From: Nanobdellota archaeon
GTDB taxonomy: Archaea > Nanobdellota > Nanobdellia > SCGC-AAA011-G17 > JACPIM01
Assembly (NCBI GenBank): GCA_038046265.1
Contig: JBBSWN010000013.1
Coordinates: 1 to 49,271 of the forward strand
Reading direction: 5' to 3'
DNA: 49,271 bases
Positions 8,996-45,528 of this stretch are shown piece by piece (the stretch's first letter is position 1; the number at the start of each line of letters is the position of its first letter). The notes below the pieces were generated by a model. That model ran no database searches. It was given only the letters and a program-made list of their open reading frames with translations, and had not been told where the DNA came from. A program made the translations under genes and the position numbers.

Positions 8996-9946
8996 TTATT
9001 TGTTTTTTCTTAATCTATATAATTTATAGAAACTAACTAAGCTTATTATTAACAAAATTGTTGATACAAGAATTATATCATTTTGCCTTATTCTGTAACC
9101 AAAGATTACGAAATCAAATATCAAGAATTCTGCAATTGACTTTATTGTTTTTCTTGGAACAAATTGGTAAAATGAACCTATAATCAGGGTTAATATTGCT
9201 AGAATTAGCCAAGACTTTTTTGATAGTATATTTGATATAAATGAATGGGTGTTGTAATTAAAAACAAGATAAAATACTAGATTTACTATGACTAAGGCAA
9301 ATATTGAGTAAATTAACTCTTTAGTTAGGAAGAAAACTAAAAATGCCGAGATTAATGAAGTTACTAAACCTCTTTGTAATTTGTTTTTTGGCCAGAATAA
9401 TGTTATTATAGAAGCTGGAATAAAAGATAAAATTGAAGGAGTAATTACAGCAAATGTCATTAATGAAGCAGCTTCTTCTTCTCCTAAACCTTGAAATCTC
9501 CATTGAAACATCAAAGAAATAGCGTAAAGAGCTATTGAACTTATGCCTGCTAATAACACAAAACTCAACTTTCTTAAATAATCTTTTTTTGACTCTAAAA
9601 AATTTAAAGCTGCAAAGTAAGATACTAACATAAAAAACATATGAAGAAATATAAAGAAGAACTGCTCATCAAGCCAGAAAACTTCTCTGTTTAAAGTTGG
9701 AACAGCTGAGAAATAGTAAATATAAAACATAAAAGGACCAAGCATACTAGCTACAATACCCTGCTCTTTTCCTTTTCCAATAAATTGAGTTATTAAAAAT
9801 GCTGTTAAAAAAATCACAGTTAACTTTATAGCAACGTAGTTTAAATGAACAGTCCAGTTAGTTGCAAGATGATAAACAATATCTAAACCATTCATCACTA
9901 AAGTTATAATCAAAGAAAAAAGAAAATTAGAAAGAAATTTACTCAT
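8996..9946 (-). CDS. polytopic membrane protein of unknown function
   Basis: About 8-9 hydrophobic segments. The likely start is the ATG at 9946 (MSKFLSNF...), 2 nt after the stop of the upstream cupredoxin gene. The N-terminal extension to 9994 in the ORF track would overlap that gene. Confidence 0.6.
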   Translation of the reverse strand: MSKFLSNFLFSLIITLVMNGLDIVYHLATNWTVHLNYVAIKLTVIFLTAFLITQFIGKGKEQGIVASMLGPFMFYIYYFSAVPTLNREVFWLDEQFFFIFLHMFFMLVSYFAALNFLESKKDYLRKLSFVLLAGISSIALYAISLMFQWRFQGLGEEEAASLMTFAVITPSILSFIPASIITLFWPKNKLQRGLVTSLISAFLVFFLTKELIYSIFALVIVNLVFYLVFNYNTHSFISNILSKKSWLILAILTLIIGSFYQFVPRKTIKSIAEFLIFDFVIFGYRIRQNDIILVSTILLIISLVSFYKLYRLRKNK

Positions 9947-9948
9947 TT

Positions 9949-10341
9949 TTATTGTACAATTACAGCACCTTTCATTGATGGATGAATTCCACAAATATAG
10001 TCTGTTCTTCCTGGGCTGTTAAAAGTAAAGGTTACAGAATCTCCTTGTTCCAAATTGTCTGATGCTAAAACACCGTCAATTGACTCTACTGTATGAGAAA
10101 CAGAATCATCATTTCTCCAAGTTACCTCTGTCCCTACTTTTACTTTTATTTCACTAGGAACAAATTTAAAATTCTTTATTATAACTGAGGCTGCTTCTCC
10201 GCCAGCACTAACTCCTTTTTCATCACCCTGTTTTTCAACTACAGGAGCTGTTTCTTCTACTGGTGCTGTTTCTTGTTTTGAACAACCAGTTATTAACAAT
10301 CCCAAGATTATTAATAAAACCAAAAAAATTGCTTTTTTCAT
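9949..10341 (-). CDS. cupredoxin (plastocyanin/amicyanin-like blue copper) lipoprotein
   Basis: Signal peptide with lipobox LLITGC. Type-1 copper ligand pattern SHTV ... CGIHPSMKG (His, Cys, His, Met). Confidence 0.8.
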   Translation of the reverse strand: MKKAIFLVLLIILGLLITGCSKQETAPVEETAPVVEKQGDEKGVSAGGEAASVIIKNFKFVPSEIKVKVGTEVTWRNDDSVSHTVESIDGVLASDNLEQGDSVTFTFNSPGRTDYICGIHPSMKGAVIVQ

Positions 10342-10394
10342 AATTATTTTCAGTAAACGAATATATATAAATCTTGTTAAAAATATAATTTAAA

Positions 10395-11147
10395 ATGTAT
10401 TTTCATAATTTTGACCCTGTTTTGTTTAGATTAGGGTTTTTGGAGATTAGGTATTATGGATTAGTGTACTTGCTTGGGTTTTTACTAGTTTTTTTATTTT
10501 TAAGAAAATATAAGAAAGAACTTAGTTTAAAGGAAGATGATGTATATAATTTAATTTTTTACTTGTTTATTGGCGTTATTTTAGGGGCTAGAATATTTCA
10601 CTTTATTTTTTCTGAGCCTTATATTTTAATTAATGATCCTCTGGAGTTTTTCAGGATTTGGAACGGGGGAATGAGTTTTTTTGGAAGCTTGACAGGAGTA
10701 ATTTTAATGGTTTATATTTTCTGCAAAAGATATAAAACTAGTTTTTTCAAGACTGCTGATGTTTTAGTTTTGCCTGCTACGATTGCCTTGTTTTTTGGGA
10801 GAATTGCTAATTTTATAAATGCTGAGTTGATTGGAAGAATTACAGATGTTTCCTGGTGTGTTATATTTCCTACTTATTCACAATGCAGGCATCCATACCA
10901 GATTTATGCTGCTCTTTCACATCTAGTTTTATTAATTATTTTAATTTTTACATGGAAACTGAAAGAGAAAAGAAAATTAAAGAATGGCGTTGTATTTGTA
11001 AGTTTTGTTGTATTTTACAGCTTATTAAGAATAACAACAGATTTTTTCAGGGAAGACTTAAGAATATTCGGGTTTACAATATGGCAATACATTAGTTTAG
11101 CTTTCTTATTACTTGGGATTTATATTTATAAGAAATTAAAAAACTAA
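10395..11147 (+). CDS. lgt: prolipoprotein diacylglyceryl transferase (bacterial-type Lgt)
   Basis: Collinear with E. coli Lgt motifs: FDPVLF..G...IRYYGLVYLLGF, WNGGMSFFGS, GRIANFINAELIGR, RHPYQIYAA, DFFRED. Confidence 0.85.
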   Translation: MYFHNFDPVLFRLGFLEIRYYGLVYLLGFLLVFLFLRKYKKELSLKEDDVYNLIFYLFIGVILGARIFHFIFSEPYILINDPLEFFRIWNGGMSFFGSLTGVILMVYIFCKRYKTSFFKTADVLVLPATIALFFGRIANFINAELIGRITDVSWCVIFPTYSQCRHPYQIYAALSHLVLLIILIFTWKLKEKRKLKNGVVFVSFVVFYSLLRITTDFFREDLRIFGFTIWQYISLAFLLLGIYIYKKLKN

Positions 11148-15022: not shown

Positions 15023-15307
15023 ATGGTCAGATTTAAAGAATTGTGCAGAAAATGCAGAAAAAACATGGTTTTAGTTTCAAGTAAAACAAAATTTCCTGTT
15101 TGTTATGACTGCCAGAAAGAAGAACTACAAGGAGAGATTAAGGACAAGAAGATGAAAGAGATGTTTGACATTCCTGAAGAGTTTTACAGGGAAAGCTTGT
15201 TTTTAAGGAGCATTAAAATTAATTATTTAAAATTTGGAAAGTTAAGCAGCAAACAGTTAGAATGGTTCAAGAAAGTTGTTGACGAGATGAAAAAAGATAA
15301 AGAATAA
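15023..15307 (+). CDS. small zinc-ribbon protein, unknown function
   Basis: CRKC...(17 aa)...CYDC four-Cys motif followed by a helical basic tail; 94 aa. Confidence 0.5.
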   Translation: MVRFKELCRKCRKNMVLVSSKTKFPVCYDCQKEELQGEIKDKKMKEMFDIPEEFYRESLFLRSIKINYLKFGKLSSKQLEWFKKVVDEMKKDKE

Positions 15308-15827
15308 CTGCTTTCTTAATAACGACGTCTGTTAATGGTTTATCATTTGCATTTCTTGGTGCACTGCTGATTTTATCAACAATATCTATGCCTTCAATCA
15401 CTTTTCCAAAGACAGGATGTTTTGTGTCCAGGAAATTATTATTTACTGTGTTTACGAAGAACTGAGAACCACCTGTGTTGGGGCCAGCATTTGCCATTGA
15501 TAATGTACCACGGTTGTTTTTGTTGTTTTTTGTGAATTCATCTTTTATTGTGTAACCTGGGCCGCCTCTTCCTGTTCCAGTTGGGTCACCGCCCTGTATC
15601 ATGAAATTTGGAATTACTCTATGAAAAATTACATTATCATAGAATTTTTGTTCAACTAATTTTTTGAAGTTTCCTGCTGTAATCGGCATTGTATCTTCAA
15701 ATAATTCTATTTTTATATTTCCTAATGTGGTTTCAAGTAAAACTATGCTGTTCATTTTTTTCTCCCCGGTTTTACAACCTGTTATTAAAAACAAAGATAT
15801 TAATAAAATTAAGATTAGTTTTTTCAT
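15267..15827 (-). CDS. cyclophilin-type peptidyl-prolyl cis-trans isomerase, lipobox-containing
   Basis: FHRVIPNFMIQGGDP, SMANAGPNTGGSQFF; N-terminal signal peptide with LFLITGC. Confidence 0.9.
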   Translation of the reverse strand: MKKLILILLISLFLITGCKTGEKKMNSIVLLETTLGNIKIELFEDTMPITAGNFKKLVEQKFYDNVIFHRVIPNFMIQGGDPTGTGRGGPGYTIKDEFTKNNKNNRGTLSMANAGPNTGGSQFFVNTVNNNFLDTKHPVFGKVIEGIDIVDKISSAPRNANDKPLTDVVIKKAVILYLFSSRQQLS

Positions 15828-42294: not shown

Positions 42295-45200
42295 GTGATA
42301 AAAGCTGAAGAATTAGCACAAAAGCAAAGAGAAATTTCTGTTTCTGAATTTTTCACAAAAAACAGGCATTTACTAGGTTTTGATAGCCCGGCAAAGGCAA
42401 TTTTAATGGCTGTAAAAGAGGCGTGTGACAATAGTCTAACCTATGATATGCCGTTTGTTATAAAAACTAAAGGCAAAATTTCGATAGTAAAAATAGGTGA
42501 ATTTGTTGATAATTTTATTAATAAAAATGAAGAAAAGTCTGAAAAGCTAAGAAATGGTAGTTTAGAAAAATTGCGGCTTGATGAAGGTATAGCTGCTTTA
42601 GCATTTGATAAAAAGACATTTAAACTGTCTTTTAGAAATATTTCTACAATTTTTCGACACAAAGTTAATAGTAAAATATATCGGGTTAAATTAGTTTCTG
42701 GAAGATATGTAGATTTAACTGCATATCACTCTGTTTTTACTTTAAACCAGGGTAAAGTCATATCAATTCCAACCGCTGATTTAAAAGAAGGTATGTCCAT
42801 TGTTGTTCCAAAAAAATTATGGAATAATCAATCAATAAATGAAATTAACTTAATTGAAGAGTTATTGCTTCTCGAACCATCATTAACTAATCGAATTAAT
42901 ATCTATGGAATTACTTCATTATTTACTGACCAAATAATTAAGAATATCAAGGATCTTTTACCAAAAAATAAGTGGTATAAAATAGGGGATTTTAAAAAAT
43001 GTAATTATCTCCCGCTTAACATTTTGCGAAATCTTAATATTGATTTAAATAGTTTTTCCGAATCCAAAATAGGTACTTCTCTTTGTAGATACAAAATACC
43101 AGCAATCCTGAAAATAGACAATAATTTAGCAGAATTATTGGGCTTTTATGTATCTGAAGGATCTATGTTAAAAACAGGACGCAGATTGCATTTCTCTTTT
43201 GGATCTCATGAAAAAGAGTTTATTTACTACGTACAGGATTTATATGAAAAGGTTTTTAAAATCAAGCCGAAAATCGGGAAAGCGCACAATACAGCATACA
43301 ATGTTATTTCAAATTGTACCATTCTATGCTTTGTATTAAAGAATATATTTAAAGTCGGGACAGATGCGAAAGATAAAAAAATACCTCAATTCGTGTTTAA
43401 TTTTCCCGCAAATCTAAAATACTCTTTTTTACTGGCTTATCTTGCTGGTGACGGGTATCCTAGTAAAAAAATTTTCGATATTTTAAAAAATAATTTACTG
43501 CTGACTGATTTAGATATTGACAAAACAACATGTGCAACTGCAAGTAATGATTTATTTATTGGTCTTCAATATATTTTATCTTCTCTGGGTTTAAGTTACA
43601 GCACTAGTATAAAAGAACCGAAAGAAAGAATTATTAATGAAATTAGGGCTAAATTTGGAAAAAGTTATTATATTTATATACCTACTAAAGGGAAAAATAG
43701 TGATATCAATTATTTACCAGTAAAAGATACTATTTCTAGTACAATAGATCTCCAAATAAAGCACTCTATTTTGAGGTATAACCAAAAAAACCTGCATATC
43801 GAGACAATAATGAATTCTCTAAGTAATTCAAAATTAATTTTACATGAAGGATTAGATTCCTTTTTAGCTGGCGATCTAGGTTTATTAGAAATAGTAAAAA
43901 TAGAAGAAATACCATATCATAAAGAATGGGTTTACGACGTATCAGTACCAGAATGTGAAAACTTTGTTGCAGGTATGGGAGCAATTGTTTGTCATAATTC
44001 TCTTGATGCATGTGAAGAAATGAGAGTTCTGCCAGAAATTAAAGTTGAAATCAAAGAGGTATCAGAAAATAGATTTAAAGTAGATGTTGAAGACAACGGC
44101 CCCGGAATTGTAAAAGAACAAATACCAAAAGTTTTTGCGAAATTACTATATGGAAGCAAATTTCACAGACTGCGCTGCAGCCGCGGTCAGCAAGGAATTG
44201 GAATTAGCGCTGCTGTTTTATATTCACAATTAACAACAGGCAAGCCAGCTATAATAACATCAAAAATTAGTCCAAAACAAAAAGCACACCGTTACTGGCT
44301 TCATATTAACACTGCAAAAAATGAGCCTGAAATAATAAAGGAAGATTCTTTTGAATGGAACAAAGATCACGGCACTAAAGTTGAAATAGAATTGGAAGGA
44401 AAATATCAAAAAGGAAAACAAAGCGTGGATGAATTTTTAAAACAAGTTGCAATTGTCAACCCACATGCTAAAATAACTTATGTAAATCCGCTAAATGAAA
44501 AAATAGAATATCCAAGAGTTACAAATGAAATGCCTGCAGAAGCAGTTGAAATAAAACCTCATCCATACGGCATTGAGCTTGGAATTTTAATAAAAATGCT
44601 GAAATCTACTGAATCAAGAACATTAAGCTCTTTTTTACAAAATGATTTTTCAAGAATAAGCAGTGTAACAGCAAAAGAAATTTGTGACAAGGCAAATTTA
44701 GACCAGAAGTTAAAACCAGAAGAACTGACATTACCCCAGTCAGAAGCTTTGTACAAAGCAATGCAAAACACAAAAATAATTGCTCCTCCAACAAACTGCC
44801 TTACTCCAATTGAGGAAGAACTATTAATTAAAGGCCTTCAAAAAGAGATTAATGCTGAATTTTACACATCTGTTTCAAGAAGCCCTGTTGTATACAAGGG
44901 AAGGCCATTTTTAATTGAAGTTGGAGTTGCCTATGGGGGAGACATAGAAAAAGAAGCACAGGTAAGATTAATGAGGTTTGCTAACAGAGTTCCTTTACTA
45001 TACCAGCAAGGGGCGTGCTCAATAACAGAAGCTGTACAGGAAACAAATTGGAGACCATATGGACTGCAGCAAAGCAGTGGAAGTTTGCCTTATGGACCTT
45101 TAGTTTTAGTTGTTCACATGGCCAGTGTATGGGTTCCTTTTACATCAGAAAGCAAGGATGCTATTGCACATTATGAAGACATTATAAAAGAAATTAGATT

Positions 45201-45528
45201 AGGGTTGCAGGAATGCGGAAGAAGACTGGGAATTTACATAAGAAAAAATGTAAAAGCTAAAGAACAAAAAGAAAAAATTGACTTATTTACAAAATTTATT
45301 CCTGAATTAGCTTCATCATTAAGTTCATTGACAGGAGAAAAATCAAAAACTCTTGAAGAAGAACTGACTAAAATTTTAAACAAGAACATGAAAGAATTGT
45401 TAAGCAACATTGATAATGCAGAAATAAAGCAGGAAATAAGAGAACAGATGAAAGAACATTTAAACGGAAAAAAGGAGAAGATTGAAGTTAAGAAAACAAA
45501 AAAGGAGATTCAAACACAGCTTAAGTAA
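42295..45528 (+). CDS. top6B: DNA topoisomerase VI subunit B, interrupted by an intein
   Basis: The exteins (555 aa joined) carry the GHKL N-box ...KEACDN|SLDACEE, the G-boxes DNGPGI and GQQGIG, and the H2TH and transducer regions. The total ORF of 1077 aa is about twice the normal size. Confidence 0.9.
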   Translation: MIKAEELAQKQREISVSEFFTKNRHLLGFDSPAKAILMAVKEACDNSLTYDMPFVIKTKGKISIVKIGEFVDNFINKNEEKSEKLRNGSLEKLRLDEGIAALAFDKKTFKLSFRNISTIFRHKVNSKIYRVKLVSGRYVDLTAYHSVFTLNQGKVISIPTADLKEGMSIVVPKKLWNNQSINEINLIEELLLLEPSLTNRINIYGITSLFTDQIIKNIKDLLPKNKWYKIGDFKKCNYLPLNILRNLNIDLNSFSESKIGTSLCRYKIPAILKIDNNLAELLGFYVSEGSMLKTGRRLHFSFGSHEKEFIYYVQDLYEKVFKIKPKIGKAHNTAYNVISNCTILCFVLKNIFKVGTDAKDKKIPQFVFNFPANLKYSFLLAYLAGDGYPSKKIFDILKNNLLLTDLDIDKTTCATASNDLFIGLQYILSSLGLSYSTSIKEPKERIINEIRAKFGKSYYIYIPTKGKNSDINYLPVKDTISSTIDLQIKHSILRYNQKNLHIETIMNSLSNSKLILHEGLDSFLAGDLGLLEIVKIEEIPYHKEWVYDVSVPECENFVAGMGAIVCHNSLDACEEMRVLPEIKVEIKEVSENRFKVDVEDNGPGIVKEQIPKVFAKLLYGSKFHRLRCSRGQQGIGISAAVLYSQLTTGKPAIITSKISPKQKAHRYWLHINTAKNEPEIIKEDSFEWNKDHGTKVEIELEGKYQKGKQSVDEFLKQVAIVNPHAKITYVNPLNEKIEYPRVTNEMPAEAVEIKPHPYGIELGILIKMLKSTESRTLSSFLQNDFSRISSVTAKEICDKANLDQKLKPEELTLPQSEALYKAMQNTKIIAPPTNCLTPIEEELLIKGLQKEINAEFYTSVSRSPVVYKGRPFLIEVGVAYGGDIEKEAQVRLMRFANRVPLLYQQGACSITEAVQETNWRPYGLQQSSGSLPYGPLVLVVHMASVWVPFTSESKDAIAHYEDIIKEIRLGLQECGRRLGIYIRKNVKAKEQKEKIDLFTKFIPELASSLSSLTGEKSKTLEEELTKILNKNMKELLSNIDNAEIKQEIREQMKEHLNGKKEKIEVKKTKKEIQTQLK
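42433..43998 (+). mobile_element. intein (522 aa) with a LAGLIDADG homing endonuclease domain
   Basis: Block A is SLTYDMPFVIK..G (Ser1) and block B is LTAYH. The two LAGLIDADG motifs are LLGFYVSEGS and LLAYLAGDGY. Blocks F/G are VYDVSVPECENFVAGMGAIVCHN, followed by Ser+1. Confidence 0.85.

Follow-up and report, generated by a model that had tools for sequence, protein, structure and literature searches.

The stretch of DNA considered here, called the window below, comprises 49,271 nucleotides of a Nanobdellota archaeon (contig JBBSWN010000013.1 of assembly GCA_038046265.1) and contains a gene, lgt, for a homologue of bacterial prolipoprotein diacylglyceryl transferase (Lgt). With a probability put at roughly 0.7, this gene would encode the enzyme that opens a lipoprotein maturation pathway of bacterial type, which in a Woesearchaeota-type DPANN clade takes the place of the archaeal lipidation factor AliA. 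The following features were noted at the locus.

10395..11147, plus strand: lgt, prolipoprotein diacylglyceryl transferase homologue of 250 amino acids (aa) with seven transmembrane segments (7-TM), PF01790/TIGR00544
10342..10394, no strand: divergent intergenic spacer between lgt and the cupredoxin gene, 53 bp, AT-rich, sequence read directly
9949..10341, minus strand: lipobox cupredoxin (amicyanin/halocyanin-like) of 130 aa, PF13473 and PF00127, candidate Lgt substrate
15267..15827, minus strand: lipobox cyclophilin-type peptidyl-prolyl isomerase of 186 aa, PF00160, second candidate substrate
8996..9994, minus strand: polytopic membrane protein of 332 aa, directly downstream of the cupredoxin gene on the same strand, listed for context only

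The open reading frame (ORF) at 10395-11147 matched PF01790 (LGT) over model positions 1-237 of 240 (E 1.9e-61, 207.9 bits, cut-off 24.9) and the NCBIfam equivalog TIGR00544 with 161 bits (cut-off 118.9), and its product was aligned to Escherichia coli Lgt (5AZB) with E 1.7e-39. An AlphaFold2 model of the protein, built from an alignment of 38 archaeal homologues, had a pLDDT of 93.6 and a pTM of 0.89, and the sole significant match of this model in a Foldseek search of the PDB was again 5AZB (E 1.4e-15, TMq 0.75). A first-pass annotation had described the product as collinear with the bacterial enzyme, and the motifs that it quoted, from YGLxYLxGF through FFR, were present. The source genome (791 kb in 37 contigs, 96.9% complete, contamination 0.21%) gave a single Lgt match. 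Archaeal genes on the same contig included those for TopoVI-B, MCM, ATP-dependent DNA ligase, GatD and GatE, and GC content around lgt was even, at about 0.29-0.30. The closest public relatives were labeled Candidatus Woesearchaeota archaeon; in the nearest of these, with an Lgt 74% identical, the order lipobox cupredoxin, lgt, small ORF and gatCAB was kept. Sequencing runs that contained the window stretch were groundwater metagenomes. The window gene is a genuine Lgt inside a genuine archaeal genome, and the possibility of a mis-binned contig, raised and doubted in the first-pass annotation, was not borne out. The TopoVI-B gene (42295-45528, plus strand) is split by an intein (PF14890) at residues 61-568.

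The active site of the protein was for the most part that of E. coli Lgt. Thus, Y26, R143, N146, E151, G154, Y235 and R239 (E. coli numbering, from alignment to 5AZB) were kept, with Y21, Y208 and R212 of the window protein corresponding to Y26, Y235 and R239, and the signature motif G142-G154 was present as GRIANFINAELIGR. His103 was replaced by Phe (F96 of the window protein; GGMSFFGSL versus GGMSFHGGL in E. coli), and further changes were Ala for E202, His at position 206 and Asp for E243. Among 67 archaeal Lgt sequences, residue 103 was His in 46, Phe in 17 and Tyr in 4; R143, R239, G98, G99, G104, D129, G154, H196, P197 and Y201 were invariant, and Y26 (65/67), N146 (66/67) and E151 (66/67) were nearly so. 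These final counts, like the folding alignment and the trees, excluded sequences from unpublished genomes, of which three loci (L006, L008 and L011) were used in some residue comparisons of archaeal Lgt. Within the family of the window genome (f1), single-copy orthologues carried Phe in genus g1, Tyr in g2 and His in g3, and the codons found at this position (CAY, TAY and TTY) form a series in which neighbours differ by a single nucleotide. The Phe103 group tended to have Ala202, His206, Asp243 and a Cys pair in a short head domain, and positions 202, 206 and 235 were also variable within the order.

In E. coli, His103 is essential, and none of the variants H103A/N/Q/R/Y, the Tyr substitution included, complements (PMC4728403). 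The Phe103 enzyme might therefore be catalytically dead or repurposed, whether for another acceptor or donor or in a structural or lipid-remodelling role, with lipobox proteins being processed otherwise; the changes at E202 and E243 in the same protein and the variability of residues 202, 206 and 235 within the order could be read in the same way. This explanation is nevertheless considered unlikely. The protein is the only Lgt copy of its genome, and the remaining essential residues are invariant in sequences that are only 26-79% identical. Moreover, His, Tyr and Phe interchange within one family by single-nucleotide steps, with at least seven changes between the His and non-His state on a tree of 187 Lgt sequences, and genomes with a non-His residue retain LspA, Lit and the lipobox Cys of cupredoxin and cyclophilin orthologues, while AliA (DUF63) was not found in the five Phe103 genomes searched. 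Because these residues alternate among single-copy orthologues while lipobox substrates persist, Phe103 together with A202, H206 and D243 is taken here as a probable case of tolerated, lineage-specific remodelling of the pocket rather than inactivation. The same comparisons suggest that this branch of Lgt can do without His103. The first-pass annotation had named loss of catalytic residues as grounds for doubt; such a loss was found at His103, whereas the other essential residues are kept. The Phe103 variant of archaeal Lgt is new in the present analysis, and the natural series of His, Tyr and Phe at this position offers ready variants with which to probe the disputed role of that histidine.

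Position 206 adjoins R143 in the E. coli structure, and His206 (H176 of the window protein) was considered as a relocated histidine compensating for the loss of His103. Among 150 global Lgt representatives, handled as sequences without taxon labels, His206 was present in 11 of 19 non-His103 and 4 of 131 His103 proteins. The tree, however, gave only 3 supported independent pairs, the sign test was uninformative, and one protein (L041) has Phe103 without His206; the idea was rejected for want of statistical support and remains speculation. In another set of Lgt proteins of the same order (L058-L060 and L065-L067; families f4 and f127), Met, Ile or Leu stood in place of Tyr235, at which most substitutions are not tolerated in E. 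coli Lgt, in combination with Ser202 and Arg206. These proteins appear to represent a second pattern of active-site remodelling beside the Phe103 type. Woesearchaeota-type Phe103 Lgt (50% identical) was also encoded by two metagenome-assembled genomes titled 'uncultured Methanosarcinales archaeon' (L035 and L036 from G439 and G440), which are 1.2-1.5 Mb in size and in neither of which a DUF63 gene was found; the Methanosarcinales label is probably wrong.

The gene divergent from lgt was confirmed as that of a blue-copper protein with the lipobox LLITGC, as the first-pass annotation had stated, and its mention of a lipobox cyclophilin 4 kb away held equally. The cupredoxin (9949-10341) matched PF13473 (6.8e-13) and PF00127 (1.5e-09), the best NCBIfam match being TIGR02657 (amicyanin), and its copper loop was amicyanin-like (C-x2-H-x2-M). 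Its N-terminus reads MKKAIFLVLLIILGLLITGC, and the predicted signal peptide, MKKAIFLVLLIILGLLITG, is followed by Cys20 (codon 10282-10284), the last residue of LLITGC. A lipobox cupredoxin also adjoins lgt at five other loci (G142, G044, G061, L033 and L034), where signal peptides have diverged but not the Cys. Within the 53-bp spacer, which may, by inference only, include a shared promoter region, TATATATAAA occurs some 22-32 nt ahead of the ATG of lgt. On the far side of the cupredoxin gene, the TTG start of the 8996..9994 ORF overlaps the cupredoxin end by 46 nt; the encoded membrane protein had no Pfam match and only sub-threshold matches in the ESM Atlas.

The cyclophilin (15267-15827) matched PF00160 with E 4.4e-53 and 180 bits. 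It starts with MKKLILILLISLFLITGC, and the predicted signal peptide, MKKLILILLISLFLITG, precedes Cys18 (codon 15774-15776). The lipobox Cys was present in orthologues from 7 of 9 relatives (G142, G444, G061, G044, G336, G355 and G029) and absent from those of G056 and G448. At the other end of the gene (15267-15307), the matches in G142 and G444 read through a TAG stop, and alignment ceases near residue 176; the final ~10 residues encoded by the window ORF, in a part that overlaps a Zn-ribbon ORF, look like a lineage-specific tail.

Evidence for further candidate substrates came from a screen in which a PROSITE-type lipobox rule was applied at either of the first two ATGs of ORFs, with internal ATGs as control. 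The rule matched 12 times among 849 ORFs and once at 2059 internal ATGs, an N-terminal enrichment above chance (Fisher p about 0.001). The genome-wide search for lipobox proteins suggested by the first-pass annotation thus yielded about 7-12 proteins, of which ~7 have textbook lipoboxes ending in I-[S/T/V]-G-C, namely the cupredoxin, the cyclophilin, a DUF192 protein, two 316-aa paralogues and two small proteins. In relatives, ~15 convincing lipobox genes were noted in 170 kb of lgt flanks, several of them directly downstream of lgt. In family f20 (L010, L012, L017, L018 and L027), a lipobox protein of 110-117 aa (MKK...LLAGCV) is encoded directly 3' of lgt on the same strand, an arrangement that looks like a conserved operon of lgt and its substrate. 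Since lgt very often lies beside one small lipobox gene and lipobox proteins are few in the genome, Lgt could be imagined to serve a few dedicated neighbours, such as the adjacent cupredoxin, as part of a local cassette rather than in general maturation. This is quite improbable, however, as lipobox proteins of unrelated families (the cyclophilin, the DUF192 protein and the two 316-aa paralogues among them) are spread across at least six contigs, and neither lspA nor lit is linked to lgt in this genome.

Homologues of the two partner enzymes were encoded elsewhere in the source genome.

G000:C10:61248-61685: LspA homologue of 145 aa with four predicted helices, PF01252
G000:C18:117-737, minus strand: Lit-family gene (locus L051), PF07314

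The LspA homologue, for which the first-pass annotation had proposed a search, matched PF01252 with 63.5 bits (cut-off 25), over model positions 32-141 of 142 only, and both catalytic Asp residues (LLDR and NLGD) aligned with those of Staphylococcus aureus LspA (6RYO). The Lit homologue matched PF07314 with 62.5 bits (cut-off 24). In alignment to 7B0O, it kept equivalents of His85, Val89, Phe149, His153, Phe157 and Trp162, these being conserved or catalytic residues of Bacillus cereus Lit that include the His85/His153 pair (PMC8275575). Lit was present in 49 of 81 genomes of the order; lgt and lit were adjacent in G355, G424, G101 and G316, and lspA and lit in G252. The presence of Lit in an archaeon is odd in that its reaction, transfer of an ester-linked sn-2 acyl chain (PMC8275575), requires such a chain.

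The distribution of these genes was surveyed in 401 genomes sampled from the same GTDB phylum, each at least 90% complete and together representing 281 genera. Lgt was present in 337 of the 401 genomes and in 236 of the 281 genera, and LspA (PF01252) in 338 genomes. When the two lists were compared genome by genome, both proteins were found in 324 genomes, Lgt only in 13, LspA only in 14 and neither in 50. Among control genomes, all 10 from bacteria and none of the 4 from archaea (M. jannaschii, H. volcanii, S. acidocaldarius and M. acetivorans) gave Lgt and LspA matches. Six of the 401 genomes are unpublished (G242, G243, G321, G332, G359 and G395); all six had Lgt and LspA and none had DUF63, and tallies without them were 331/395 for Lgt, 332/395 for LspA and 318 for both, with the DUF63 result described below unchanged at 17/50.

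In a phylogeny of 38 archaeal Lgt sequences with E. coli Lgt as the only outgroup, genome-family labels changed 12 times, which is the minimum, and none of 200 shuffles was as low. This clustering fits mainly vertical descent of Lgt within the clade. Because Lgt is clade-wide, family labels cluster and close relatives keep synteny, any transfer from bacteria to archaea would predate the clade. Recent acquisition by the source genome, or a mis-binned bacterial contig or chimera, might be supposed from the otherwise bacterial occurrence of the family and the result with control genomes, but is highly improbable in view of the archaeal genes and even GC content of the contig, the 74%-identical orthologue in the same cupredoxin-lgt-gatCAB order, the occurrence of Lgt in 337/401 phylum genomes with clustered family labels, and a contamination of 0.21%. 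The first-pass annotation had also treated Lgt as unusual for its host, a view that these frequencies contradict.

Lipidation in archaea has been attributed to AliA and AliB (PMC12462473), in keeping with the statement in the first-pass annotation that archaeal lipobox processing is the work of other factors. AliA is HVO_2859 of Haloferax volcanii (PMC12462473), whose product a Haloferax paper gives as 'DUF63 family protein' (PMC9426492), the Pfam family PF01889. At a threshold of E <= 0.01, the 96.9% complete source genome gave no DUF63 match; among control genomes, only the three euryarchaeal ones (H. volcanii, M. jannaschii and M. acetivorans) did. In the phylum survey, DUF63 occurred in 17 of the 401 genomes, spanning 14 families, and only in genomes with neither Lgt nor LspA, that is, in 17 of these 50 genomes as opposed to 0 of the 351 with either protein. 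Non-orthologous displacement between lipidation systems would produce such a pattern of mutual exclusion, which is the strongest indirect evidence that archaeal Lgt may perform the job of AliA. As judged from these distributions, a bacterial-type pathway appears to have taken over from AliA long ago and across the clade, for which Lgt is ordinary.

The lipid that such a pathway would use was considered from gene content. Genes for synthesis of lipid cores (GGGPS, PF01884; UbiA-family DGGGPS; PlsY; PlsC) were not found in the source genome. The following gene was noted on two of its contigs.

G000:C9:15706-16163 and G000:C33:9284-10010 (L044 and L043): CarS-like gene, split by two overlapping contig ends

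Immediately downstream of this gene is that for a CDP-alcohol phosphatidyltransferase, for which every NCBIfam match was below cut-off. The genome would therefore seem to contain head-group machinery without lipid-core synthesis. Because it is without lipid-core genes, the donor lipid would have to be scavenged, and scavenged cores are probably given new head groups. As to whether the donor is an ether or an ester lipid, the CarS-like gene points to archaeal ether lipids and Lit to ester lipids. A tentative and on balance doubtful proposal is that surface proteins are anchored by ester-linked, bacterial-type diacylglycerol from neighbouring cells and not by archaeol; it is argued from the presence of Lit with an intact His pair, often encoded beside lgt or lspA, as this enzyme acts only on an sn-2 ester. 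If so, the Woesearchaeote membrane would be at least partly bacterial-type lipid, bacterial hosts or lipid sources would be implied, and the variable residues 103, 202, 206 and 235 of the Lgt pocket would track the lipid scavenged in each lineage. A paper on heptaprenylglyceryl lipids in Bacillus was rejected as precedent for action of Lgt on ether lipids, as it concerns an acetyl carrier.

From these results, the following sequence of events is envisaged. Secreted proteins with a signal peptide ending in [I/L/V][S/T/V]GC, such as the cyclophilin, the cupredoxin encoded beside lgt and a further 5-10 or so, would cross the membrane, after which Lgt, to judge from homology and its conserved active site, would move the lipid-bearing glyceryl group of a phospholipid with a glycerol head onto the Cys thiol. 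LspA, with both catalytic Asp residues present, would then cut before the lipidated Cys, and Lit, with its catalytic His pair, may relocate the sn-2 chain to the N-terminus so exposed. The donor lipid would be taken up from outside and given a remodelled head group. That such a pathway works is plausible, since the same genome also has genes for LspA and Lit homologues whose catalytic residues are intact. The suggestion in the first-pass annotation of a horizontally acquired, functional pathway is therefore plausible as regards function, whereas the frequency of Lgt in the phylum is at odds with a recent or unusual acquisition.

Several observations weigh against replacement of AliA by this pathway. 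The inactivity of five His103 substitutions in E. coli means that activity may be lost or changed in the Phe103 enzyme. The LspA homologue scored 57.6 bits against the TIGR00077 cut-off of 73.95 and is shortened in its N-terminal part, and lipobox proteins, at about 7-12 in the whole genome, are few. The co-occurrence counts were taken from related genomes, in which events are not independent. Finally, the lone CDP-alcohol transferase scored best, although weakly, as archaetidylinositol-phosphate synthase, whereas the canonical donor of Lgt is of phosphatidylglycerol or archaetidylglycerol type.

According to three sources, dated 2018 (PMC6098224), 2025 (PMC12462473) and 2026 (bioRxiv 10.64898/2026.03.08.710431), no Lgt-type genes have been identified in archaea, and a full-text literature search returned no paper tying DPANN or Woesearchaeota to Lgt, beyond sources stating that none was identified. 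Some lipoprotein-rich archaea are without AliA and AliB, leaving other pathways to find (PMC12462473). For one large DPANN clade there would now be a concrete answer, that is, canonical bacterial enzymes with a distribution mutually exclusive with that of AliA. Questions that become testable are whether a bacterial-type Lgt works in an archaeal membrane, which lipid is transferred (ether or ester, based on glycerol-1-phosphate or glycerol-3-phosphate) and where lipid-auxotrophic DPANN cells obtain their lipids.

Of known systems, the closest is bacterial Lgt (E. coli b2828; 5AZB/5AZC), which belongs to the same family and has the same 7-TM fold (TMq 0.75). The window protein shares with it GRxxNFxNxELxG, Y26, Y235, R239 and RHPxQxY, and its gene is likewise accompanied by those for an LspA homologue and candidate lipobox substrates. 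It differs from the E. coli enzyme, with which identity is 27-34%, in that its host is an archaeon without lipid-core genes, in its short head domain, which lacks ~22 residues of the segment from G154 to R195, and in having FGSL for HGGL, Ala for E202, His at 206 and Asp for E243. With AliA and AliB (arCOG02177/02178; PF01889; HVO_2859/HVO_2611) it would share the presumed function of attaching lipid to the lipobox Cys of proteins that archaea secrete, but it belongs to a different family, and a DUF63 gene was not found in the source genome.

The neighbouring cupredoxin resembles halocyanin of Natronomonas pharaonis, which is cited as an archaeal blue copper protein with a lipid anchor (Mattar 1994, as relayed by PMC12462473 and a 2026 AliA preprint), in being small and archaeal and in having a lipobox signal peptide. 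Halocyanin, however, carries archaeol in a haloarchaeon with AliA, whereas the putative transferase here is a bacterial-type Lgt. A further parallel is the lyso-form pathway of Firmicutes (Lgt, Lsp and Lit; 7B0O; PMC8275575), of which no description in archaea was found. Lit depends on an sn-2 chain in ester linkage, a feature absent from the ether lipids of archaea. The source genome, like those Firmicutes, nevertheless encodes homologues of all three enzymes, and the His pair and aromatic cage of Lit are kept.

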